DNA of 64,000 nt, taken from Mycobacteriales bacterium (GTDB lineage: Bacteria; Actinomycetota; Actinomycetes; JAFAQI01). Where the stretch lies: contig DASZRO010000018.1 in assembly GCA_035550055.1 (NCBI GenBank), positions 94,743-158,742 on the forward strand, in the 5' to 3' direction. Under the pieces are notes generated by a model, which was not told where the DNA came from, made no database searches, and worked only from the letters and a program-made list of their open reading frames with translations. How positions within the stretch are numbered: the stretch's first letter is position 1; each line of letters starts with the position of its first letter. Positions 2,871-58,328 of this stretch are shown here, in pieces. The translations under genes were made by a program, and so were the position numbers.

Positions 2871-4094
2871 TCAGCCTCGGCTGCCTGCGGCAGGGCTGAA
2901 CCGCACCGGCATCGACTCGTAACCCGACACGAAGTTCGCCGGACGGTACGCCGGCTCGGCGTCGTCGACCAGCGCGATGTCCGGGAGCCGCCGCAGCAGC
3001 GTCTCGAAGAAGCACACCAGCTCGAGGCGAGCCAGGTTGTTCCCGAGACAGAAGTGAGTCCCGATGCCGAACGCAACGTGGTCGTTCGGCGTACGCCCGA
3101 TGTCGAACCGGAACGGGTCGACGAAGACCGACGCGTCGCGGTTCGCCGAGGGATAGAGCAGCAGCAGCTTGTCGCCGGCGGCCAGCCGTTGGCCGCCGAC
3201 CTCGGTGTCGGCGACGACGGTGCGTGCCATGTTCTTGATCGGACTCACCCACCGCAGCATCTCCTCGACCGCCAGCGGGATCCGGGTCGGGTCGTCGATC
3301 AGGGTCTGTTTCGCCTCGGGGTTGCGTAGCAACTGGTAGAGCCCACCGCTGATCACGTGGCGAGTGGTCTCGTCACCGCCGATCAGGATGAGCAGGGCGT
3401 CGTGGATGACGTCTTCGAGGTTGACGTCCTCGCCGTCCGTGCCGCCCTGCACCAGCAGGCTCACCAGGTCTTCTCCCGGTGCGCGCCGCCGATCCTCGAT
3501 CGCCGCCGTCGCGAACTCGCGGAAGCCGGCGTAGGCCTGCGCCGCCGGCAGCATCGCCTCCGGGTCGGCGTTGCCGACGAGTGCCTTCAGCATGTCGTCT
3601 GACCACTCGAGCAGAGACCGCCGCTGCGACTCCGGGAAGCCGAGCATGTCGCCGATGACGTGCATCGGCAGCCACGCGGCGAGATCGCGGACCGCGTCGC
3701 ACTCGCCGCGTTCACAGACGTCGTCGATGATCCGTTCGCACCACGCGTTGATCGGCTCCACCGAGTCGGCGAGGCGGCGGGGCGTGAAGCCGCGGTTGAC
3801 CATGTTGCGGCGGCGTTTGTGCTCCGCACCGTCCTGGTCGATCATCATCGGGATCGCGGCGTTGTCGGGACGGATCCCCCCGCCGTTGCAGAACTGCTCC
3901 GGGTGCAACGAGACGTACTTGAGGTCGGCATGGCAGGCGATGCCCCACACCTGGCCGTCCCAATAGACCGGAGCGTTCTCCCGCAGCCAGGTGAGCTCCC
4001 CGTGCGGGTTTCGCCCCCAGAACTCGCCGCTGACGAGGTCGATCGCCGGATTGACCGGGTGGTCGCCCTTGGCGAGTGTCGTACCGGCGGTCAT
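2871..4094 (-). CDS. cytochrome P450, CYP142-like (steroid C26-monooxygenase family)
   Basis: Heme-binding loop AFGIGTHFCLGNNLARLEL plus motifs NGGGIRPD, PMMIDQD and VCERGECDAVRDLAA that closely recall mycobacterial CYP142. Last gene of the P450 operon; 4 nt overlap with the upstream SBP gene. Confidence 0.85.
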   Translation of the reverse strand: MTAGTTLAKGDHPVNPAIDLVSGEFWGRNPHGELTWLRENAPVYWDGQVWGIACHADLKYVSLHPEQFCNGGGIRPDNAAIPMMIDQDGAEHKRRRNMVNRGFTPRRLADSVEPINAWCERIIDDVCERGECDAVRDLAAWLPMHVIGDMLGFPESQRRSLLEWSDDMLKALVGNADPEAMLPAAQAYAGFREFATAAIEDRRRAPGEDLVSLLVQGGTDGEDVNLEDVIHDALLILIGGDETTRHVISGGLYQLLRNPEAKQTLIDDPTRIPLAVEEMLRWVSPIKNMARTVVADTEVGGQRLAAGDKLLLLYPSANRDASVFVDPFRFDIGRTPNDHVAFGIGTHFCLGNNLARLELVCFFETLLRRLPDIALVDDAEPAYRPANFVSGYESMPVRFSPAAGSRG

Positions 4095-5587
4095 CCGCCC
4101 GACCTCGGCAGGAAGCGGCCGTCGCAGCGGTAGCCGGTGGCAGGGTCGTCCACGCGCTCAAAGCCTCCGTTCTCGAGCTTCCACAGGATGTAACAGTGTG
4201 GCCCGCCCTTTGCGCTCGGATCGACCGGAGCGATCAAGCCGTTGGAGTCGAAGTTCTTGATCCGGCGCAGCGAGGCCAGCAGCGTCTTGCGGTCGAGAGT
4301 CGGTCCGGCGGTCTCGGCAGCCTGCTCCAGCATCCGGTCGTCGGCCCATGCGTACATCGCGTAGAGGTTGATCGGCTGTCCCGGATAGGTCCGCGTGAAC
4401 CAGTACTGGAAGAGCTTGACCTCCGGTGTCTCGTCGGCGGGGTCGGTGTTGAAGAACAGGGCGTAGGAGTTCCAGCCGAGGATTCCGTTGAGGTCGGACT
4501 TCGCTCCTGCGTAGTCGCTGAGGAACGCCTGGTCATAGGCGATCGGGATGATGTTGATCAGACTCGACGGGCAGCCCGCCTGGCGTTCGTTCTGGATCAT
4601 CGTCGCGGCATTGCCCGCCGGCTCGGTCAGCTCGAACAGCACCTGGATGTGCTCCTGCTGGCACAGCTTGACGAAGTCGCCCTGGAAGCTGCTGTTCGTC
4701 GGCTGCTCCAGGATGCTGTCGACGAAGTGCCATCCCTCTGCTTGCGCCGAGTGGACCATGTTGGCCTGTTGCGCGACCGCCGACGGGATGTTCTCGACGA
4801 TCGACCCCACGTGGTCGAGCTTCGTCCCGAACTTCTGCTTGTAGTAGCGGAACATGCCGGTGGAGAACCCGCTGCCGCCGGCGGAGATGTCGAAGTGGTT
4901 GGGCGGGGTGTAGGCGGTCGGATCGAGGGCGACGTGGATGTCGGCGACACCAGGGTTTGCCTTCACGATCGAGGCGCCGCAGCCGTCGTAGAGGGCGAAG
5001 GTGCCCGACAGCGCGAAGCTCCTCCCGATCAAGCTCTGTGTCGCGTTCTCGTCCTGCGTGCAGCTCGCCGCGTCGTCGACCACGTCCACCTTCACCTGCC
5101 GACCGCAGATGCCGCCGGAGGTGCTGTTCACGTAGTTCGCGAACGCCTCGCCGCCTTGGACTGCTCCTTCGAACAGCCCGGACACCGGGCCGCTGAGCGT
5201 CGCGACCTCGCCGAGGGTCATCGTCGTCGCGGTCAAGCCGACGTCGGTCCCGCCCGAACAGCTCTGCGCCACCGGAGCGGTCGCCACCGGTGTGGTTGAC
5301 GGACGTCCGGGATTCGCAGCCGAGCCGGTCGTCACACCTGCCGGCGCGCTGGGCTGCGACACAACGCCTGGTACGCCGGAGGGCGCGGCGGAGGCCACCG
5401 CGCTCGCCGACGCGACCGCAGCCACCGCCGGCGGCGGCGCGACCGCTCGGTCGTTCAGGACCGCGTGCTCTGCCTGGCTGCGCACGTCGCCGGGCAGCCG
5501 GGCGCCGCACGCAGTGGACAGCAGCCCGACCAGGGCGGCCGCCACGCGCAGCCGGCCACCGCGCCGCAGTCGGGTGCGGGTGCTCAT
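4091..5587 (-). CDS. lipoprotein, periplasmic solute-binding protein (type I PBP, LivK-like), orphan
   Basis: Signal peptide plus lipobox (LLSTAC), a long Ala/Pro/Ser/Thr-rich linker, then a PBP1 fold. No permease or ATPase genes nearby. Overlaps both neighbouring genes by 4 nt. Confidence 0.7.
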   Translation of the reverse strand: MSTRTRLRRGGRLRVAAALVGLLSTACGARLPGDVRSQAEHAVLNDRAVAPPPAVAAVASASAVASAAPSGVPGVVSQPSAPAGVTTGSAANPGRPSTTPVATAPVAQSCSGGTDVGLTATTMTLGEVATLSGPVSGLFEGAVQGGEAFANYVNSTSGGICGRQVKVDVVDDAASCTQDENATQSLIGRSFALSGTFALYDGCGASIVKANPGVADIHVALDPTAYTPPNHFDISAGGSGFSTGMFRYYKQKFGTKLDHVGSIVENIPSAVAQQANMVHSAQAEGWHFVDSILEQPTNSSFQGDFVKLCQQEHIQVLFELTEPAGNAATMIQNERQAGCPSSLINIIPIAYDQAFLSDYAGAKSDLNGILGWNSYALFFNTDPADETPEVKLFQYWFTRTYPGQPINLYAMYAWADDRMLEQAAETAGPTLDRKTLLASLRRIKNFDSNGLIAPVDPSAKGGPHCYILWKLENGGFERVDDPATGYRCDGRFLPRSGG

Positions 5588-6003: not shown

Positions 6004-6862
6004 GCGCACCCTCCCGAGGCACTCGCAGCGCCGCCGCCAGCGACGCCAGTCCGAGCCGCCCGAACGGCAGGTCCACGCCCAGCGCGGCGCCGAGGTCGAG
6101 GGCGTGTTGCAGGTCCTTCTCGCCGAGCTCGCGGGTGTGCTCGAAGATCGGCCGCAGCGGGTCGTCATCGGCGTACGGGTCCTGCGTCGGCGAGATCATG
6201 ACCACGGACGGGCCGCCGATGACGGCATCGCTGTGGCGGATCGCGGCGGCGAGATCGAGCACGTCGACGCCCGCGGCATGAGCGAGTCGCGCCACCTCGC
6301 CGGTCGCGGCGTAGCCGACGAACTGGAGCAGGTTTCGGACGACCTTCGCGCGGATTCCCGCTCCCGAAGCCCCGAAGTACAGCAACAGCGACGCCCAGCG
6401 TTCGAACACCGGCTTCGCCCGCTCGTAGGCAATGCGGTCTCCGCCCGCCATCGCGACGAGCTGCCCGGAGTCGGCACCCGCCGGGCCGCCGGTCAGCGCG
6501 ACGTCCAGGACCGCCACGCCGCGCTGCTCCCCGGCGGCGGCCAGTGCGGGCGCCGTCTCCACGTCGATCGTCGAGTGCACCGCGATCACAGTCCCCGGTG
6601 CCGCGTGCTCGATCAGCTCCTTGACGACCTCACGCACCTGCGCGTCGGTCAACACGACGACCGAGATCACGCTCGCGGCCGACGCCAGGTCACGCAGATC
6701 GCCAGCGGCTCGGGCGCCGGCATCGACGAGCGGAGTCGCGGCCGCCGGGTCGACGTCGTACACCGACAGACCACCAGGCCAGTCGATGAGGCGCTTTGCC
6801 AGCGCTCCGCCCATGTTGCCCAGCCCGACGACTCCGACGCCGACGGCCGCCGCCTCACTCAC
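5996..6862 (-). CDS. NAD(P)-dependent oxidoreductase, 3-hydroxyisobutyrate/6-phosphogluconate dehydrogenase family
   Basis: N-terminal GVVGLGNMGG Rossmann motif and the beta-hydroxyacid dehydrogenase fold. The GTG start at 6862 gives a GTGA overlap with the upstream NTF2-like gene. Confidence 0.75.
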   Translation of the reverse strand: MSEAAAVGVGVVGLGNMGGALAKRLIDWPGGLSVYDVDPAAATPLVDAGARAAGDLRDLASAASVISVVVLTDAQVREVVKELIEHAAPGTVIAVHSTIDVETAPALAAAGEQRGVAVLDVALTGGPAGADSGQLVAMAGGDRIAYERAKPVFERWASLLLYFGASGAGIRAKVVRNLLQFVGYAATGEVARLAHAAGVDVLDLAAAIRHSDAVIGGPSVVMISPTQDPYADDDPLRPIFEHTRELGEKDLQHALDLGAALGVDLPFGRLGLASLAAALRVPREGAHD

Positions 6863-24259: not shown

Positions 24260-24380
24260 CCCAGCAACGCTCCATTGCTGGGGCTCCCTCCCCAGCAACG
24301 CTGCGTTGCCGGGGGATTGGCCGGGCAACGCTGCGTTGCTGGGGGATAACCCCACGTAATGGAGCGTTGCTGGTCAGTAC
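24260..24380. repeat. tandem array (4 units) of palindromic intergenic repeat CCCCAGCAACGCTGCGTTGCTGGGG
   Basis: Read directly between the citA stop and the serC start. Units are about 25-35 bp, each with a 9 bp inverted arm pair. The same unit recurs at 56922-57014. Confidence 0.8.
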
Positions 24381-24389
24381 CCTTGGCGG

Positions 24390-25514
24390 GTGACTGACGC
24401 CACTCTCGAGATTCCCGCCGACCTGCGGCCAGGCGATGGCCGTTTCGGCTCTGGCCCGACGAAGGTCCGGCCGGAGCAGCTTGCAGCCCTTGCTGCGACC
24501 GGGACGTCCTACCTCGGTACGTCGCACCGGCAGGAGACCGTGCGCTCGGTCGTTCGGCGGGTCCGAGAGGGCATCGCGACGCTGTACGACCTGCCGGACG
24601 GATACGAGGTGATCCTCGGCAACGGCGGCGCGACGATCTTCTGGGACATCGCAACCCTCTGCCTGATCGAGCGTCGCTCGCAGCACATGGCGTTCGGTGA
24701 GTTCTCGACGAAGTTCGCAAAGGCGACCGCCGCGGCACCGCACCTCGAAGAGCCCTCGGTCCTCAAGGCCGACTACGGCCACGCCCCTGACGCCTTCGCG
24801 CCGGAGGCCGGGATCGACGCCTACTGCCTGCCGCACAACGAGACCTCCACCGGCGTGATGACCAGCATCCAGCGACCCGTCGGCGCGGACGCCGGAGCGC
24901 TGATGCTGGTGGATGCGACCAGCGCCGCGGGCGGTCTTCCCGTCGACCTGACGCAGACCGATGCCTATTACTTCGCGCCGCAGAAGGGCTTCGCCTCGGA
25001 CGGCGGGCTGTTCTTCGCGATCCTGTCACCCGCGGCGATCGAGCGCAGCGAGCGGCTCATCCCGCAGCGCTGGGTGCCGTCGACGCTGGACCTCGGAATC
25101 CACATCGAGCAATCGAGGCTCGAGCAGACCTACAACACACCCGCGCTCGCGACGGTGTTCCTCATGGCCGAGCAGGTCGAGTGGATGAACGCGCAGGGTG
25201 GGCTGGCCTGGGCAACCGAGCGCACTGGGGAGTCGGCGCGAATCCTCTACACGTGGGCGGACAAGGCGCCGTACGCCGAAGCCTTCGTCACCGACCCGGC
25301 GAAACGCTCGACCGTCGTCGGCACGATCCGGCTGGACGAGGCGATCGAGGCTGACAAGGTGGTCAAGGCACTGAAAGCCAACGGGATCCTCGACGTCGGC
25401 GCATACCGCGCGGCCGGGTACAACGGCCTGCGCGTCGGCATGTTCCCGGCGATCGATCCGGCAGACGTCGAAGCGCTCACCGCCTGCATCGACTGGGTGG
25501 TCGACCGGCTGTGA
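24390..25514 (+). CDS. serC: phosphoserine aminotransferase (actinobacterial SerC type)
   Basis: N-terminus FGSGPTKVRPEQL and the class-V aminotransferase fold. GTG start. Confidence 0.88.
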   Translation: MTDATLEIPADLRPGDGRFGSGPTKVRPEQLAALAATGTSYLGTSHRQETVRSVVRRVREGIATLYDLPDGYEVILGNGGATIFWDIATLCLIERRSQHMAFGEFSTKFAKATAAAPHLEEPSVLKADYGHAPDAFAPEAGIDAYCLPHNETSTGVMTSIQRPVGADAGALMLVDATSAAGGLPVDLTQTDAYYFAPQKGFASDGGLFFAILSPAAIERSERLIPQRWVPSTLDLGIHIEQSRLEQTYNTPALATVFLMAEQVEWMNAQGGLAWATERTGESARILYTWADKAPYAEAFVTDPAKRSTVVGTIRLDEAIEADKVVKALKANGILDVGAYRAAGYNGLRVGMFPAIDPADVEALTACIDWVVDRL

Positions 25515-32329: not shown

Positions 32330-33157
32330 TTATTCGCCGAGCGCTTCGTTCATCGAACCGGACCGAAACCCCCTCGGGTCCACCTCCACCGACGCGAATC
32401 CGGAGACCGCCGCGAGCAGGTCGCCCCGCCGCGCGAGTGAGGCCACCATGTCGGCATCCACCTCGACGCGGGCGACGTCGCCGAGATCACGAACTCGCAG
32501 GTCCCGTACATCGAGGCCGGCCTCGCGCAGGGCGGAGCGCAGGCCGGCCTCGGCCCGCTCGACGCGGGCCAGCCGGTACGGCGAGACCTCGATCCCATAG
32601 GCGATCCGGCTCGACAGGCAGGCCGCCGCCGGCTTGTCCCAGGTCGGCAGGTCCCACGCCCGGCTGAGCTCGCGGACCTGCGGCTTGGTGAGCCCCGCGT
32701 CCAGTAGCGGGGTGACTGCGCCGCGTTCGGCCGCGGCCCGGATCCCAGGACGGAACCCGGCGACGGCGTCGTCGGCGTTGGTGCCGGTCGCGACGTACGC
32801 CAGGCCGAGGTCATCCGCCAGCGGCGTGAGCACGTCGAGCAGCTCCGCCTTGCAGAAGAAGCAACGGTCGGCGCCGTTGGCCCGGTACCCCTCGCGCGAC
32901 ATCTCGTCGGTGCGCGGCGTCAGGTGACGTACGCCGAGGCCGGCCGCGAAGTCCCTGGCCTGGTCGAGCTCGCTGGCCGGCAGGCTCGCCGACACCGCGG
33001 TCGCCGCCGCGACCCGGTCGGCCCCGAGCGCGCGCGCCGCGGCGGCCACCAGGAACGCGGAGTCGGCGCCCCCGCTGAAGGCGACCAGCACGCTGCCGAG
33101 CTCGGCAAGCCGCGCCTGCAGGACCTCGAGCCTCTCGCGCGATCCGGCCGAACCCAC
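32330..33157 (-). CDS. larE: PP-loop ATP pyrophosphatase, LarE-type sacrificial sulfur transferase family
   Basis: SGGADS PP-loop plus CFFCK and the conserved LarE/TIGR00268 core. Confidence 0.75.
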   Translation of the reverse strand: MGSAGSRERLEVLQARLAELGSVLVAFSGGADSAFLVAAAARALGADRVAAATAVSASLPASELDQARDFAAGLGVRHLTPRTDEMSREGYRANGADRCFFCKAELLDVLTPLADDLGLAYVATGTNADDAVAGFRPGIRAAAERGAVTPLLDAGLTKPQVRELSRAWDLPTWDKPAAACLSSRIAYGIEVSPYRLARVERAEAGLRSALREAGLDVRDLRVRDLGDVARVEVDADMVASLARRGDLLAAVSGFASVEVDPRGFRSGSMNEALGE

Positions 33158-33215
33158 CCCGCGAGGCTATCCACCCCGCGCGGCTATCCACCCCGCGCGG
33201 CTATCCACCCCGCCG
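33153..33215. repeat. 17 bp tandem repeat GCTATCCACCCCGCGCG, 3-4 copies, first copy overlapping the larE start
   Basis: Direct reading of ccaccccgcg recurring with a 17 bp period. Confidence 0.7.
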
Positions 33216-33270
33216 AGCCCAACGTTGTTGGTCTCTCAGGGCCGTCGAAAGACCAACAACGTTGGGCTCG
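33211..33270. repeat. long perfect hairpin repeat (22 bp stem) CCGAGCCCAACGTTGTTGGTCT-15nt-AGACCAACAACGTTGGGCTCGG
   Basis: Perfect inverted repeat read in the sequence, followed by a G-rich tract. A second copy lies at about 53057-53115. Confidence 0.8.
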
Positions 33271-33302
33271 GCGTTGGGGGGCGGCGTTGGGAGGGCGGGG
33301 GG

Positions 33303-35315
33303 TCAGGCCAGGGCGGCGACGAGGGCCGGGGCGTTCGGCGTACCGAGGCCGGTCGAGTCGTCGTAGCCGGGCAACGCCTGCAAGGTTCCGAGTACGCCGA
33401 TCGTTCGCAGCGTGTAGATGACCGCGGACTTCGGGTTGTCCCCGGTCGTGTAGTCCGGCCGGACGTCGGCCAGGCGGGTCAGCGCACCGCGCTTGGCCAC
33501 CGGCACCGGGTCGTAGAACAGCCGCTGCCGCTGCGCCGCGGTGCGCGAGTCGGCGTACATCGTCGGTGTCACCAGCCCGAGCCGGTGATGCGCCTCGGCG
33601 TCCGCGAGCGCCAGCAAGCCGGTGAACAGCGGCGAGGCCAGACTGGTCCCGCCGATCCGGTACTCGCCATAGCGGGTCGCGCCATCGGCGAAGCTCTGCG
33701 TCAGCCCGAGCGCGATCCCGGTGGTCGGGTCGGCGACCATCGACACGTCCGGCTCGACGCGGCCCGGCTGCATCAACCCGCCGTACGTCGCCTCGTCAGC
33801 CGGCACGATCCCGTACTGCCAGGCCGGCTCGCGGAAGATCGTGCTGTCGCCGCCGCCCCCGCCGTACATGTAGACCTTGTGCTGGTAGTCCCACTTCCCC
33901 TTGGTGAACGGGATCTTCTGCGTCCCCCAGTACGACTCGGAGACGCGCGCTCCGGTTCGCCCGATCTGCAGCGTCGTGCCGCCGACCGTGACGACCCCGG
34001 GGCTGGTGGTCGGGAAGTCCGCGACCCGATGCCCGGTGAGGGCGAGCTCGTCGCCGTCGTCACCGGAGGAGAAGGCGATCGTGACACCTTCGGCGGCGGC
34101 CTCGTTCGTGATCGCGTTGAGCACCTGTACGTCGCCGAGCACGGTGTCTTCGCTGTCATCCCCCCACGAGTTGCTCACCAGGTCGACCTTGCCGCTCTCG
34201 ACGGCTTGCGCCAGCGCGAGCAGGAGGTTGTCGACGCCGACCCCGATGCCTGCGACCTCTTCGTACGGGAGGTTGGCGACGGCCGAGTAGTAGGCGATGC
34301 TCGCGTCGGGCGCCATCCCGTGAACCGCTTCGATGTCGAGGGTCTCCTCACCGGCCCAACCCTGTCCGTCGAGGATCGGTACGCCGAGCAACGACAGCTC
34401 CGGCAGGCTCGACTCACCGGGGAAGGTGTGCTGCGTGAGCTGGCCGGGCCGCAACCGCGGCAGCCCCATCCGCTGCGACCACGTGTCGACGTCGGACTCG
34501 ACGGTCGGCGAGGCGTAGGCGTCGACGATCCCGACGGTGACGCCGCGGCCGGTCGAGTGCACCTGGTTCACGCCGTACGCCGAACGGATCTGGCCCATCG
34601 TGTAGCCGCAGACCGCGTACGGCGCGTGCCGGCCCTGGTAGGAGGGCAGCGTCGAGGCGACCTTCTGCCCGTAGTAGCGCGAGCACGGATGCGCGTTGAT
34701 GTACCCCGTCGGTGGTGACGCGTCCGACACCGCCGGGGTCTGCGCGAGCCCGACCACTGTCGCCGCGAGCGGCCGCAGCGCAGTGGGCATCGTCGGCTGC
34801 GACAGCGGCGCGCGCAGCAGGCGGCCGGCGACGTCGAACAGGCCGAAGGTCGTGGCGAACACCTTCCCGACCAGCGCGGACGTGGCGTGTGCCGTGATCA
34901 GCGTGCCGCCGGGCGTCGTGTTGTCGATCGTGAACCCCGCGTGCCGCAGCCAGGTCCGCGCCGCGGCCGTCTCGGCCGGCGCCGGTCCGAACCGGCGGGC
35001 GAACTCGGCGCGGGTCAGGAAGTGCCGGTACGACGCCGACGTCGGGTCGCTGACCGCCGCGTCGAAGCGCCGCAACGCGGCCGGATGACGACCCTTCAGC
35101 AGCACCGAGAACTGCACCAGCGCGTCCGGCGACTCGAGCTTCGCCGGCAGGACGTCTCGCGCCCACGCCGGGATCGCCTCGATCACCGACGCGAGGCTCC
35201 GCACCGGTTGCGCGGTCGGGCCAGCGGCGAGCGCCGGCGCTTCCAGGGCGGTGACCGCGAGTACTGCGGCGGCCGCGGCGAGGCGCAGGGTCGACCCGGT
35301 CTTCACCCCGCTCAT
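33303..35315 (-). CDS. secreted S53 family peptidase (sedolisin) with pro-kumamolisin activation domain
   Basis: Signal peptide, N-terminal pro-kumamolisin activation domain, and a catalytic Ser in GGTSLASPLFTG. Confidence 0.85.
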   Translation of the reverse strand: MSGVKTGSTLRLAAAAAVLAVTALEAPALAAGPTAQPVRSLASVIEAIPAWARDVLPAKLESPDALVQFSVLLKGRHPAALRRFDAAVSDPTSASYRHFLTRAEFARRFGPAPAETAAARTWLRHAGFTIDNTTPGGTLITAHATSALVGKVFATTFGLFDVAGRLLRAPLSQPTMPTALRPLAATVVGLAQTPAVSDASPPTGYINAHPCSRYYGQKVASTLPSYQGRHAPYAVCGYTMGQIRSAYGVNQVHSTGRGVTVGIVDAYASPTVESDVDTWSQRMGLPRLRPGQLTQHTFPGESSLPELSLLGVPILDGQGWAGEETLDIEAVHGMAPDASIAYYSAVANLPYEEVAGIGVGVDNLLLALAQAVESGKVDLVSNSWGDDSEDTVLGDVQVLNAITNEAAAEGVTIAFSSGDDGDELALTGHRVADFPTTSPGVVTVGGTTLQIGRTGARVSESYWGTQKIPFTKGKWDYQHKVYMYGGGGGDSTIFREPAWQYGIVPADEATYGGLMQPGRVEPDVSMVADPTTGIALGLTQSFADGATRYGEYRIGGTSLASPLFTGLLALADAEAHHRLGLVTPTMYADSRTAAQRQRLFYDPVPVAKRGALTRLADVRPDYTTGDNPKSAVIYTLRTIGVLGTLQALPGYDDSTGLGTPNAPALVAALA

Positions 35316-39245: not shown

Positions 39246-39439
39246 CCGTCGGTCGGGGCCCGAAATCCCCGGTCGGTGAGCTCGCGGCGCGTCCCGCGTC
39301 ACGCCCGGCCGAACGTGTCGTTATTGTGTGCGGGCGCGCCCAACCGGGCGCGCGTCGCATTCGCACCGCCAAACCTGTCCGGCGAATGCGTCGCCTTCAA
39401 TCCCAGACGGACGGGGCCGGGGACCCAAAAGTTCTACCC

Positions 39440-39556
39440 AGCAACTGGAACGCGCACGCGCGTTTCACGGAGCGATTCGCTCCTTGGGGTGAAGCCGTCT
39501 CACGACGGCCGGGTGATCCACTCACCCGAACCCGACAGCTAACTCGGCAGGCGTCG
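39440..39556 (+). ncRNA. candidate ydaO-type (c-di-AMP) riboswitch in the NlpC/P60 leader
   Basis: Segments TTGGGGTGAAGCC, CCGGGTGATCC and ACCCGAACCCGACAGCTAACTCGGCAGGCG resemble conserved ydaO blocks. The SD sequence GGAG lies just downstream. Confidence 0.4.
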
Positions 39557-39567
39557 GAGTGGACTTC

Positions 39568-40377
39568 ATGCTGCCTTCGCATACCTGTGCCCGCTTTCGC
39601 ACCGTCGTACTCGCCGGCCTGACCGCCGGTTTGGTCGTGTCCGCCGCCGGTACTGCCTCCGCCGCCCCGACCGGGCGACCCACGAGCACCGCGACCGACA
39701 CCGAGACCCACTCGGGGACGAACTCCGGGTCCCACTCGGGGACGAACTCCGGGACGGCGAGCCCCGCCGACCCCACCCCGACCGACCCGACCACGACGAG
39801 CCCGTCCGACCCGACCGCGCCCACATCTCCTGGCGATCCGGGCGCGGCGACCGGCGATCCGAGCGATCCGACGACCGGCCCGACACTTCCGATCGACCCG
39901 AACCTGCCGGCCATCACCTTCGAGCTGCCGCAGGCCAGCGCCCACTTGCGCTACGAGCGCGCCCGGTTGCGCCGCCGCGAATGGCACCAGCACGCGGTGA
40001 GCGCGGTGCTCACGGAGGCGCGCCGCCAGGCCGGCAAGCCGTACGTCTACGGCGCAGCCGGACCGAGTTCCTTCGACTGCTCCGGGCTGGTCCGCTACGT
40101 CTTCGGCCACGCGATCGGTGACTGGCTGCCGCACAACGCCGCCGCGCAGTACGCCGTCATCGAACACATCAAGCGTCGTGACCTCGAGCCGGGCGACCTT
40201 GTCTTCCAGGAGTCGGGCGGCTACCCGTTCCACGTCGGGATCTACGCCGGCCACGACAAGTGGTGGCACGCGCCGCACACCGGCGCGGTCGTGCACAAGC
40301 AGACGATCTACCGCGGCCACCTGTTCTACGGCCGAGTCCTCACCAGCCGGATGGCCCGGCAGCGCACCCGCCACTAA
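39568..40377 (+). CDS. secreted NlpC/P60 family peptidoglycan hydrolase
   Basis: Signal peptide, a Thr/Pro/Ser-rich linker, and C-terminal YVYGAAGPSSFDCSGLVRYVFGHAIG...H...H. The ATG at 39568 has an RBS; the track's alternative start is at 39559. Confidence 0.8.
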   Translation: MLPSHTCARFRTVVLAGLTAGLVVSAAGTASAAPTGRPTSTATDTETHSGTNSGSHSGTNSGTASPADPTPTDPTTTSPSDPTAPTSPGDPGAATGDPSDPTTGPTLPIDPNLPAITFELPQASAHLRYERARLRRREWHQHAVSAVLTEARRQAGKPYVYGAAGPSSFDCSGLVRYVFGHAIGDWLPHNAAAQYAVIEHIKRRDLEPGDLVFQESGGYPFHVGIYAGHDKWWHAPHTGAVVHKQTIYRGHLFYGRVLTSRMARQRTRH

Positions 40378-43165: not shown

Positions 43166-43288
43166 AGAGGCCTTCCGTCCTCATCTTCCCCCCGGACGGT
43201 TGCCCGAAGGCCGGATGTGGCACCTGCCCGAGACGGGTGGTTGCCGGGGCTTCAACGGGCCGGTTCCCTCAGCCCCTCTTGATGAGAG

Positions 43289-47909: not shown

Positions 47910-47982
47910 AGCCCCGTGTCCGGATTGAACGGACGACCGCTCGCTTACAAGGCGAGTGCTCTACCACTGAGCTAACGGGGCA
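47910..47982 (-). tRNA. tRNA-Thr (anticodon UGU)
   Basis: Cloverleaf read on the minus strand: GCCCCGT-TA-GCTC-AGTGGT-AGAGC-A-CTCGC-CTTGTAA-GCGAG-CGGTC-GTCCG-TTCAATC-CGGAC-ACGGGGC-T. No encoded CCA. Confidence 0.85.
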
Positions 47983-53056: not shown

Positions 53057-53115
53057 GCCGAGCCCAACGTTGTTGGTCTTTCGCGGCGCCCGAAAGACCA
53101 AAAAGGTTGGGCTCG
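53057..53115. repeat. second copy of the long hairpin repeat GAGCCCAACGTTGTTGGTCTTTCG-7nt-CGAAAGACCAAAAAGGTTGGGCTC
   Basis: Read directly. Shares CCGCCGAGCCCAACGTTGTTGGTCT with the copy at 33211-33270. Confidence 0.75.
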
Positions 53116-55429: not shown

Positions 55430-56263
55430 GTGCATGTGCACAACGCTGGGGACGACCTCGATCTGGTGTGTTCAGGGTATGTCGCGACAGCGACATCGAG
55501 CGCATACTCGAACCCGATGCGGGACGACGACGACCGACCGGGTGAGGCGGCACATGCCGCTGATGAGAGCTGGGCGGACCTCGTCGTACCCGACGACATC
55601 TCCGAGCTGGCAGCCGACATCGCCGCCTACCACCGCGAGCTGCGGCGCGCCCGCCGGGGCCGGCGGTTCACCCGCTCGAATGCCCGCCGCGCGACCGGCC
55701 CGATCTTCGCGCTGGCCCTCGCCACCGCGTTGGCCGGCCTCGTGGCCTTGATGCTGACCGTGATGGCGCCGCAAGCCGTGCAACCGCCGTCGGCCGCGCC
55801 GCTGGCCGCCCCGACCGTTGCCGACGGCTCGGTCGGCGGGCTGCTGCCCGAGGTGACGTTGACCGGCCCGAACGGACCGGTCGACTCTCGCGCGGTTGCG
55901 TTGCGTCCGGCGGTGTTCGCTCTCGTGCCGGTCGGCTGTGCGTGCAAGGCGTTGCTCGATGGGCTCGGCGGGGAGGCGTACAGCGAAGGGCTACCGCTGG
56001 CCGTCGTCGTACCGTCCGCCAGCGACCCGAGCACAGCCGCGGTGGTCGCCTCGCTGGACCGCGGGGTGACGCTGTATCTCGACCCGAGCGCGGCGCTCGC
56101 GACCGCCGTGACCGGCAGCGCCGCGCCTGACCCGACCGCGATCTCGGCCACCGTCGTCGTCGTGAACAAGGACGGCACGATCTACGACATCGACCGCGAC
56201 GTCAGCAACGCCTCGCAGTCCTCACTGGAGGCGGAGCTGCAGAGCATGCTGGTGCGCCACTAG
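55430..56263 (+). CDS. hypothetical membrane-anchored protein
   Basis: Coding-frame ORF with one TM segment (IFALALATALAGLVALMLTV). No assignable domain. Start uncertain. Confidence 0.45.
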   Translation: MHVHNAGDDLDLVCSGYVATATSSAYSNPMRDDDDRPGEAAHAADESWADLVVPDDISELAADIAAYHRELRRARRGRRFTRSNARRATGPIFALALATALAGLVALMLTVMAPQAVQPPSAAPLAAPTVADGSVGGLLPEVTLTGPNGPVDSRAVALRPAVFALVPVGCACKALLDGLGGEAYSEGLPLAVVVPSASDPSTAAVVASLDRGVTLYLDPSAALATAVTGSAAPDPTAISATVVVVNKDGTIYDIDRDVSNASQSSLEAELQSMLVRH

Positions 56264-56357
56264 CGAGGTGGCGGGTCCGCCTCCGGCCTCGCACGGGCAC
56301 CTCAGTAGGCTGGCCGCGCCTGCCAAGTAGGCAACGCCGGACCGGAGGACTCGAGGA

Positions 56358-56921
56358 GTGTCTGTGATCGCGCGCCGTGCCACACAGCGCAGCATCGCCG
56401 CGGGCGCGCTCGCGCTCGTGCTGCCTGTCCTTGCCGGATGCGGCATGGAGGCCAAGGACGAGACGAGCAAGGAACACACCCAGATCCAGGCCGCGAGCAA
56501 CCACATCGGCGCGATCAAGATCCGCAACGCATTCCTCACGACGCTGCCCTCGGCGACGTCGGTCGACTCCGGCACGACCTACCTCGTGGTCACCCTCGTC
56601 AACGACGGCCGGACCCCGGACGCCCTCACGGGTGTCACCACGCCACTGGGCACCGCATCCCTTCAGGGCGGGCCGGTGACGCTGCCACCCGGAGTCGTCG
56701 TCTCGATCAGCGACCCGGAGCTCGACCCGAGCGCGACCACGCTCGCCGTCACTACGGCGACCGCGCCGACGGTGGGGACGACCGAGCCGGTGTCCTTCAG
56801 CTTCGCGACCGCGGGAACCACCGAGAACCTCGACGTACCGGTGGTCGCGCCCGGCGGCAGCCTCTCACCCGACCAGGTGATCCCGACCACCCAGGCCACG
56901 GTCGCCACCCCCATCGTCTGA
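56358..56921 (+). CDS. lipoprotein of unknown function
   Basis: Signal peptide plus lipobox LAGC. A Thr/Val-rich beta-rich body. Confidence 0.55.
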   Translation: MSVIARRATQRSIAAGALALVLPVLAGCGMEAKDETSKEHTQIQAASNHIGAIKIRNAFLTTLPSATSVDSGTTYLVVTLVNDGRTPDALTGVTTPLGTASLQGGPVTLPPGVVVSISDPELDPSATTLAVTTATAPTVGTTEPVSFSFATAGTTENLDVPVVAPGGSLSPDQVIPTTQATVATPIV

Positions 56922-57014
56922 CCTTCCCCCCAGCAACGCTGCGTTGCTGGGGGATCTCCCGGGCGACGCTGCGTTGCTGGGCAAAAAGCCGAGGCAACGC
57001 TGCGTTGCTGGGGT
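56922..57014. repeat. tandem array (3 units) of palindromic repeat CCCCAGCAACGCTGCGTTGCTGGGG
   Basis: Same unit as at 24260-24380, between convergent genes. Confidence 0.8.
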
Positions 57015-57052
57015 GGGGTGGGGGTCGGGGTGGGGTGGGGGTGGGGTGGGGT
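57014..57052 (+). repeat. GGGGT-type G-tract (8 runs of G4-5), potential G-quadruplex, abutting the gpmA stop
   Basis: TGGGGTGGGGTGGGGGTCGGGGTGGGGTGGGGGTGGGGTGGGGTC read directly. Confidence 0.75.
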
Positions 57053-57798
57053 CAGCGGCCTTGGTTGGCGACGGCTTCCGCCGCGGCCTTGGCGGCGTCG
57101 GCGTCGAGATAGGTCCCACCCGCGACCAGCGGCCTCAGCTGGTCGTCGAGCTCGTACGCCAGCGGGATGCCGGTCGGGATGTTGAGCTCGACGATCGCCT
57201 TGTCGCTGATCCCGTCGAGGTGCTTGACCATCGCCCGCAGCGAGTTCCCGTGCGCCACCACGAGCACCGTCTTGCCGGTACGCAGGTCCGGCACGATCGC
57301 GTCGTACCAGTACGGCAGCATCCGCGCGATCACGTCGGCGAGGCACTCGGTACGCGGCACGATCTCCGGTGGCAGCGACGCGTACCGCGGATCGCCGACC
57401 TGAGAGAACTCGTCGTCATCAGGCAGCGGCGGCGGCGGGGTGTCGAACGAACGCCGCCACACCATGAACTGGTCGTCGCCGAACTCCGCCCGCACCTGCG
57501 CCTTGTCCTTGCCCTGCAACGCCCCGTAGTGGCGCTCGTTGAGCCGCCAGCTCCGGCGTACCGGAATCCACTGCCGGTCGCAGGCGACCAGTGCGTTGCC
57601 GGCCGTGACGATCGCGCGCTTGAGCACGGACGTGTGAAGTACGTCGGGAAGCAGCCCGTGCTCGGCGAGCAGCTCACCCGCGCGGACCGCCTCGGCGAAT
57701 CCCTTGTCCGTCAGCCCGACGTCGACCCAGCCGGTGAACAGGTTCTTCGAGTTCCACTCGCTCTCGCCGTGGCGAAGCAAGACCAGCCGTCCCGTCAC
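57052..57798 (-). CDS. gpmA: 2,3-bisphosphoglycerate-dependent phosphoglycerate mutase
   Basis: [12 protein letters not shown]... and HGNSLRA. GTG at 57798 gives a GTGA overlap with the upstream gene; the track ORF extends to 57909. Confidence 0.85.
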
Positions 57799-58328
57799 GG
57801 GGTGCCATTCTGCTGTGCGCCGCGAGCCGCCCGGTTGTCGGGATCGGCGAAGCGCGCGAACGCGGCGAGATTCGCCAGCGACTCGCCCCGTTTCACCCGC
57901 CAGTCCCATTCCCGTTCGATCGAGGTGCGGAAGCCGATTTCGAGGGCGGTGTCGAACAGGTCGTCGGAAGCGGTGAGTACGGCGCCGAGCACCCGGTCGA
58001 TCTCCTCCGGGGTCACCGACGACAGCGGCAGCCGCCCGACGAGGTAGACGTCACCGAGCAGGTCCACCGAGAACGCGACGGCGTAGAGCTTCGCGTTGCG
58101 TTCGAGCAGCCACCGCCAGAACCGCTCCTCGTTCTCGTCCGGCTTGCGGCAGAAGAACGCTTCGACGTGCAGCGAATGGTCGCCGATGACCAGCCACGTC
58201 ATGGTGGCGAGCTTGTGCGAGCCAGGCAGCTTGACGAAGAACGCGCCCGGGTTGGGCTCTTCGAACTCGAGTTCTCGCTCGCCGAGCTCCTCGCGCAGCA
58301 CCGCCGCCAGGCGGTCGACGTCGGTCAT
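57795..58328 (-). CDS. YbjN domain-containing protein
   Basis: Conserved actinobacterial YbjN-family pattern, as in the M. tuberculosis mshA-downstream gene. ATGA overlap with mshA. Confidence 0.65.

Follow-up and report, generated by a model that had tools for sequence, protein, structure and literature searches.

A 64-kb stretch of DNA from an uncultured soil actinobacterium (the window; GC content, 70%) contains a 130-nt spacer between the stop codons of gpmA and of an LpqE-like lipoprotein gene, and this spacer consists of a palindromic array followed by a G-rich tract. The first-pass annotation had read the spacer as a likely structured terminator and insulator between two convergent transcripts. 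The question raised by this locus is whether the spacer is an element of that kind or whether its two parts have another origin.

A palindromic array and a G-rich tract between convergent genes

The features of the locus are as follows.

56364 to 56921, plus strand: LpqE-like (PF04314) lipoprotein gene, an open reading frame with its TGA stop at 56919-21
56927 to 56953: palindromic unit 1, CCCCCAGCAACGC-T-GCGTTGCTGGGGG, with 13 bp paired perfectly around a 1-nt loop
56958 to 56981: palindromic unit 2, CCCGGGCGACGCTGCGTTGCTGGG, with 8/9 core pairs
56989 to 57013: palindromic unit 3, CCGAGGCAACGCTGCGTTGCTGGGG, whose last five bases, TGGGG, are the first microsatellite unit
57009/57010 to 57051, plus strand: (TGGGG)n tract with eight runs of 4 to 5 G, abutting the gpmA stop at 57052-54; on the minus strand, a C-rich tail
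57052 to 57798, minus strand: gpmA (2,3-bisphosphoglycerate-dependent phosphoglycerate mutase, 248 aa), with its stop (TCA) at 57052-54

The stop codons of gpmA (minus strand) and of the LpqE-like gene (plus strand) both face the spacer, so the gene pair is convergent. The 248-aa GpmA is 100% identical to the phosphoglyceromutase of a metagenome-assembled genome (MAG) named "Mycobacteriales bacterium," and the same 185-aa LpqE-like gene, with PF04314, was called in two further assemblies, GCA_964558155.1 (L014) and Logan SRR12170510 (L015). In both of these, the 130-nt spacer is base-for-base identical to that of the window. This identity bears on whether the spacer is an assembly or sequencing artifact of a metagenome-assembled genome. 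Short-read platforms are error prone on G-rich repeats, and MAG contigs can be chimeric at repeats; however, the same 130 nt are found in three assemblies, the tract (42 nt) is shorter than a read, and the flanking gene order is conserved in all relatives examined. The recurrence of the spacer in two further assemblies indicates that it is not an artifact, and we regard the chance that it is one as negligible. A coding reading of the spacer was also rejected, since its frames are parts of long spurious ORFs typical of 70% GC DNA and the gpmA and lpqE stops are both at positions conserved across relatives.

Three units of the palindrome CAGCAACGC-T-GCGTTGCTG lie within 56927-57013 at a period of 30 to 31 nt, as the first-pass annotation had counted; TRF reports the array with a period of 30 and 2.6 copies. 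For the 19-mer CAGCAACGCTGCGTTGCTG, the three matches in this array are at 56931-49 without mismatches, at 56961-79 with 3, and at 56992-57010 with 2; it also matches at 24262-24341, and 11 matches were found on both strands of the window, compared to 0.02 expected from shuffles. Core pairing is 8 to 9 of 9 pairs in these three units, and the units of the family differ mainly by changes that preserve pairing. At gathering thresholds, no Rfam family was found at the spacer. Matches obtained in the Rfam E-value mode were attributed to chance, as they were sub-threshold hits to generic hairpin models (eukaryotic miRNA precursors and the ybhL leader, the latter at 28 bits versus a threshold of 50). 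A CRISPR was ruled out because the spacers between the palindrome units are only 4 to 8 nt long, and a MIRU-type minisatellite was ruled out because the conserved part is the palindrome and the inter-unit spacers differ.

The G-rich tract comprises runs of 4, 4, 5, 4, 4, 5, 4, and 4 G separated by T loops and one TC loop. The eight runs and their end at the gpmA stop had been described correctly, and the string quoted for them is exact at 57010-57051. The assignment of strands was also right: the gpmA mRNA receives a C-rich tail from the tract, and the lipoprotein transcript receives a G-rich one. TRF resolves a period of 5 (TGGGG, 8.2 copies, 87% matches) and a period of 17 (2.7 copies), and positions 57009-29 and 57026-46 are 90% identical, representing a 16/17-nt higher-order duplication. 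The tract is a microsatellite in that it consists of head-to-tail copies of a 5-nt unit. It also has the sequence pattern of a predicted G-quadruplex (G4) former, defined as at least four runs of at least 3 G with loops of 1 to 7 nt and a high G4Hunter score, with eight runs of 4 to 5 G and loops of 1 to 2 nt.

The prediction of G4 formation that the first-pass annotation had called for came out strongly. The tract has a G4Hunter score of 3.21 and is the sole region of the window above 2.5 (the next best scores 2.4), and it is the only putative quadruplex sequence with runs of at least 4 G in the 64 kb. When G4s were enabled in RNAfold (-g), two tandem, stacked, four-layer quadruplexes were predicted within the tract. 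In about 135 kb of related loci, nothing exceeds 2.2 except the same spacer in L014. G4Hunter hits at a threshold of 1.2 are common in Actinobacteria (2.8 per kb), and 97.9% of the hits in all bacterial genomes of one study score only 1.2 to 1.4 (PMC6539912); 3.2 across 42 nt is an extreme value. The G4-forming potential of the tract is thus extreme as a prediction.

The tract had also been called rare, and this was upheld by searches of larger collections. Among 2.9 million viral contigs, 59 contain (GGGGT)3GGGG, with a longest tract of seven runs; no eight-run tract, no copy of the palindrome, and no copy of the 26-nt core of the G tract were found there. An 18-mer spanning the junction of array and tract gave 46 matches in metagenome contigs, all attributable to chance, mostly coding for ...ALLGWG..., and none with the palindrome. 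The composite of palindrome and G tract does not recur in the metagenome contig collection scanned with this 18-mer. At positions 100-160 of an unrelated metagenome contig with 55% GC (L032), GCGTTGCT is followed by (GGGGT)4GGGT with no palindrome. This tract is a chance match to the search pattern, and pentanucleotide tracts occur elsewhere too.

Related junctions and other palindromic elements

The gpmA/lpqE junction was recovered from nine other lineages with 83 to 89% GpmA identity by exact-protein look-ups. The spacers between the two stop codons are as follows.

L016 (89% GpmA identity): 6 nt
L020: 11 nt
L073: 23 nt
L022: 24 nt
L072: 2 nt
L023: 0 nt
L017-19: 83 nt, containing a different palindrome, GGGCAATGT-G-ACATTGCCC, twice
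L071: 52 nt, with half-sites of the GGGCAATGT-G-ACATTGCCC type
L024: 70 nt, with another inverted repeat

The G tract is present at the junction in none of these nine lineages. Every related lineage examined lacks the 130-nt spacer in its entirety, so the gene pair works without it. By this comparison of sequences, the spacer is a recent, species-specific insertion and the junction is a hot spot for palindromic elements. In the L017 palindrome, 5 of the 9 stem pairs of the window palindrome are kept, and the remaining 4 have changes in each arm that leave them paired; this pattern suggests that the two are related families that diverged while remaining palindromic. Two of the MAGs, GCA_035547515.1 (L016/L071) and GCA_035548125.1 (L022/L023), each carry two different gpmA loci in the same neighborhood, so each of these bins probably mixes two related genomes. 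In L024, identical 59-nt perfect hairpins with 27-bp stems at 3090-3148 and 6084-6142 bracket a two-gene insertion (RCC1/beta-propeller proteins) in this related MAG. The hairpins resemble the termini of a mobile or a duplicated segment.

Two further palindromic sites were found in the window.

24260 to 24373: a second array of the same palindrome family, with four units at a 30- to 31-nt period and no G tract
33154 to 33302: a second palindrome family (33.2-kb site), with a 19-bp-arm hairpin at 33215-33269 and tandem duplications in both flanks

The window holds 7 units of the first family in 2 arrays over 64 kb, and the few kb that another assembly adds contain no more arrays. The array at 24260-24373 separates serC from a citrate-synthase-like gene encoded on the same strand; its outer units are inverted and form 53-nt arms that are 81% complementary. 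The array fills the whole gap (24260-24390) from the stop of the citrate-synthase-like gene to about 16 nt before the serC GTG start. Because the space is filled in this way, cotranscription of serC probably passes through the array, much as it passes through intra-operon REPs of E. coli.

Outside the window, the exact 19-mer gave 13 hits among 185,579 species genomes (one genome per species). Twelve of these were rejected as chance matches, isolated and in unrelated phyla. The only real hit of the palindrome family among these genomes lies in another Mycobacteriales MAG (L008), where four units in the same 30- to 31-nt phase are located between a convergent O-methyltransferase gene and glgC. 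Across the two window arrays and this one, core pairing is 6 to 9 of 9. At one end, the L008 array (4560-4702) runs into a G-rich tail of degenerate sequence, TGGGG AGGGG TTGGG TAGG, which directly adjoins the glgC stop. The first palindrome unit of this array contains the O-methyltransferase stop (CCC-ACC-CAG-TAA).

The second palindrome family, which is unrelated to the first, has the arms GAGCCCAACGTTGTTGGTC and GACCAACAACGTTGGGCTC with a 17-nt loop and occurs in two copies, one at 33215-33269 after the stop of a 670-aa gene and one at 53060-53114 between ispF and cysS. The family is absent from the ispF-cysS spacers of relatives. One flank of the 33.2-kb hairpin has 3.5 copies of a 17-mer; the other flank has about 2.6 copies of a 13-mer that comes from the arm end (CGTTGGGCTCGG, CGTTGGGGGGCGG, and CGTTGGGAGGGCGG). 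This G-rich side (33270-33302) runs exactly to the minus-strand stop at 33303-05, and the 13-mer flank is the second-highest G4Hunter region of the window. Rfam matches above gathering thresholds in the window include a c-di-AMP riboswitch (39382-39568, plus strand), a SAM riboswitch (43178-43288, minus strand), and a tRNA (47910-47981, minus strand). Just after the c-di-AMP riboswitch, positions 39707-39880 are full of short tandem repeats and form the most C-rich plus-strand stretch of the window.

The perfect 9-1-9 palindromes and their regular spacing of 30 to 31 nt, about three helical turns, would also suit a row of operators bound by a dimeric DNA-binding protein, in which case the G tract would be an unrelated spacer. 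However, the arrays are located at gene 3' ends and at an operon-like junction rather than at promoters, their units vary by pairing-preserving changes instead of keeping a fixed sequence, and the arrays are species-specific insertions. An operator array is therefore highly improbable.

Origin of the tract and candidate roles at the 3' ends

The anatomy of the spacer and its comparison with relatives suggest how it may have formed. In this species alone, a REP/BIME-like palindrome cluster would have entered a junction at which gpmA and the LpqE-like gene had ancestrally lain almost in contact. The G tract would then be not a separate element but a microsatellite grown by replication slippage from the 3' end of the last repeat (...GCGTTGC-TGGGG), first by TGGGG units and then by a 16/17-nt block, until the space up to the gpmA stop was filled. 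We infer an order in which the palindrome came first and the tract second. That the tract ends "exactly" at the gpmA stop would follow from everything between the palindrome and the coding sequence being expansion.

Several observations point to this origin. The first period-5 TGGGG unit detected by TRF begins at 57009, inside palindromic unit 3, and the family has further units with this ending, ...TTGC(T/C)GGGG(G). The 16/17-nt period over the 5-nt period indicates a second round of duplication. The tail of the L008 array looks, from its sequence, like a decayed version of the same growth, and the second palindrome family at 33.2 kb has the same arm-end tandem duplication. Repeats of this type are prone to slippage: in E. 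coli, (G4T)4 lost one unit by primer-template slippage at about 5e-5 (PMC10530614). The start of the tract within unit 3, the 16/17-nt repeat, the L008 tail, the 33.2-kb case, and the slippage of (G4T)4 together make slippage from the palindrome end the most economical origin. The locus is probably a REP-like array, specific to this species, from whose end a microsatellite has grown by slippage. Three points run counter to this reading. The units lack the GTAG/CGTC tags of the two large REP superfamilies (PMC3733652). A slippage-prone tract might be expected to vary, whereas its length is the same in the three assemblies, which may sample one population. In addition, G-rich tails abut an opposite-strand stop beside three palindromic elements (57.0 kb, 33.3 kb, and L008), which could mean that the layout is selected.

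An array and tract of this origin would have side effects, as both transcripts would gain structured 3' ends. The spacer would contribute three GC-rich hairpins, and REP hairpins stabilize upstream mRNA and attenuate read-through. The gpmA mRNA would gain, directly after its stop, a 42-nt poly(C)-like, G-poor tail of the composition preferred for Rho loading, and the lipoprotein transcript and the nontemplate strand would gain a strong G4-capable tail. Since the spacer layout is not conserved, such 3'-end roles would be incidental or very recent; we infer that any activity is incidental or recently co-opted rather than a conserved function.

Neither strand of 56000-58000 contains a hairpin followed by a T run, and no canonical terminators or promoters were found in this interval. 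The only T5 (56977-56985 region, minus strand) lies 5 nt after a stem and serves as an inter-unit loop. With no hairpin-U tract on either strand, the spacer is not a canonical intrinsic terminator. The composition of the gpmA tail is unusual. The 78 nt after the stop contain 48 C and 10 G (5.9 sd), the top C>G skew on either strand of the 64 kb. Overall GC skew is weak (-0.01 to -0.04) in the window, and an inference of the replication strand was rejected. In a set of 53 crude gene calls, the C content after the stop is 0.775 for gpmA, 0.525 for the gene at 33303, and at most 0.275 for all others, and both of these strongly C-rich tails run into palindromic elements. The gpmA mRNA is predicted to carry a 42-nt, almost G-free tail that is unpaired in the minimum free energy (MFE) fold, followed by three hairpins. 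In composition alone, the tail matches a Rho-dependent terminator in being C-rich, G-poor, and predicted to be unstructured.

These data bear on whether the spacer is a selected, Rho-dependent 3'-end module in which the poly(C)-like tail loads Rho and the downstream palindromic hairpins pause polymerase, with the G-richness of the other strand as the mere complement of the tail. The gpmA tail is the strongest C>G stretch of the window, only 2 of the 53 genes, gpmA included, have strongly C-rich tails and both tails lead into palindromic elements, and the glgC tail of L008 is arranged in the same way. A C>G bias is found in the Rut sites of M. tuberculosis Rho (PMC13650167). In E. coli, attenuation by REP/BIME is partly Rho dependent; REP325 is both a partly Rho-dependent terminator and an mRNA stabilizer, and REPs situated between convergent genes are associated with higher expression of the two (bioRxiv 10.64898/2026.03.23.713779). 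However, the layout is not conserved at orthologous sites, the three instances are explained equally well by palindrome-end duplication, and the 42-nt tract is shorter than the ~70 to 80 nt usually bound by a Rho hexamer. Selection for Rho loading is possible but doubtful.

A second form of selection would act on the G-rich strand, where a double G4 in the DNA or in the lipoprotein transcript would block RNA polymerase or exonucleases and thereby keep the convergent transcription units apart. The extreme predicted potential (3.21; two four-layer G4s), the placement of the tract exactly between two stop codons, and its rarity all speak for such a terminator or insulator. Repeats in E. coli that switch between G4 and hairpin are likewise intergenic, near 3' ends and between convergent genes (PMC5100583). 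Yet the tract occurs in none of the nine related lineages, most of which have almost no spacer, and its anatomy points to slippage from the repeat end. RNA G4 regions are, moreover, reportedly depleted from bacterial transcriptomes and harmful when expressed, a finding credited to Guo and Bartel in 2016. The C-rich leader CCUUCCCCCC is predicted to be able to pair with the G tract, which would be an alternative to the G4. Published (G4T)4 repeats folded in E. coli when the DNA was single stranded, not in supercoiled duplex or on transcription, and they mainly slipped (PMC10530614). A selected G4 terminator or insulator is quite unlikely.

The first-pass proposal was only partly supported, and a dedicated terminator or insulator was not: the whole spacer is missing in relatives, there is no hairpin-U tract, the tract resembles a lengthened version of the TGGGG with which the repeat ends, and the published (G4T)4 repeats did not fold in supercoiled duplex or on transcription. 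A terminator role that combines the hairpins, a poly(C)-like tail that could load Rho, and a G4 on the opposite transcript is plausible as a prediction, but it is not conserved. It is improbable that, in this lineage, a strand-asymmetric 3'-end module arises again and again by duplication of palindrome ends and is then retained by selection. In such a module, a poly(C)-like tail starting at the stop codon would load Rho (gpmA, the 670-aa gene ending at 33303, and glgC of L008), the palindromic hairpins would pause polymerase and protect the RNA end, and the complementary G4-capable tract would be a roadblock for the opposing transcript.

If the reading as a REP-like array with a slippage-grown microsatellite is true, the locus shows clearly how, in nature, a small palindromic repeat can seed a microsatellite, and it illustrates how a near-spacerless gene junction can suddenly gain 130 nt of highly structured DNA. 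It would also document REP-like families in an uncultured Mycobacteriales lineage, a group in which such elements have hardly been described. If the layout is instead a selected module, mobile palindromes would build bidirectional terminators between genes that otherwise abut. The 42-mer would be a good natural substrate for studies of G4, i-motif, and slippage, and the spacer, placed in both orientations, would be a test piece for REP hairpins plus a poly(C) tail as a terminator in high-GC actinobacteria. On present evidence, no new regulatory system is revealed and the practical value is limited. The recurrent G-rich growth from palindrome ends, abutting a stop codon each time, is the part most worth attention genome-wide.

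Comparison with known repeat systems

The MIRU and VNTR minisatellites of mycobacteria resemble the present arrays in being intergenic tandem repeats of Mycobacteriales that fill the space from a stop codon to the next gene. MIRU units are direct repeats of 46 to 101 bp and are not palindromes, whereas the period here is 30 to 31 nt, the palindrome is conserved, and the inter-unit spacers differ. As a natural G4-type microsatellite in the extreme tail of G4Hunter scores, the tract can be compared with (GGGGTGT)58 of Microcystis aeruginosa, which has another unit and length and no link to a palindrome (PMC6539912). The (G4T)n model repeats share the unit of the tract and are known for a very stable G4 in single-stranded DNA and for the frequent loss of one unit by primer-template slippage (PMC10530614). 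These were synthesized and cloned into a reporter gene as four units or as two blocks of four, whereas the tract described here is natural and chromosomal, with eight runs at a gene 3' end.

The HPG1/HPG2 repeats of E. coli, described as a "G-quadruplex-hairpin-duplex switch," are likewise intergenic, near 3' ends, and often between convergent genes (PMC5100583). Their G-rich and C-rich halves pair as a hairpin or form a G4, and here the CCUUCCCCCC leader and the G tract are predicted to have the corresponding alternatives. The G runs of the HPG1/HPG2 motifs are only three long, and these motifs belong to a repeat family as conserved members; in contrast, the G tract here is a unique tandem pentanucleotide beside the palindromes and outside the repeated unit.

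The REP/BIME elements of Enterobacteria and Pseudomonas, which are associated with RAYT transposases, share further features with the palindromes of the window. They are imperfect palindromes of 20 to 40 nt, they are extragenic, located at 3' ends, operon junctions, and convergent gene pairs, and they form regularly spaced clusters of species-specific sequence whose presence varies between relatives. In E. coli they stabilize upstream mRNA and attenuate transcription partly via Rho. REP/BIME elements are dispersed over a genome in about 100 copies or more; the count here is 7 units in 64 kb. The units described here are correspondingly short, near-perfect, and capable of forming stem-loops, and all three arrays of the first family fill intergenic spacers directly after stop codons. 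The alternating orientation of REP/BIME is unreadable in these units, which are almost perfect palindromes; their spacing is a regular 30 to 31 nt in all arrays. Unlike REP/BIME, one array carries a microsatellite that has probably grown from its end, and the host is an uncultured Mycobacteriales lineage rather than a member of the Enterobacteria or Pseudomonas. GTAG or CGTC tags define two large REP superfamilies (PMC3733652), and the units, CCCCAGCAACGC-T-GCGTTGCTGGGG, have neither tag at either end. Because the units are without these tags and were counted over 64 kb, we describe this palindrome family as REP-like rather than as proven REP.
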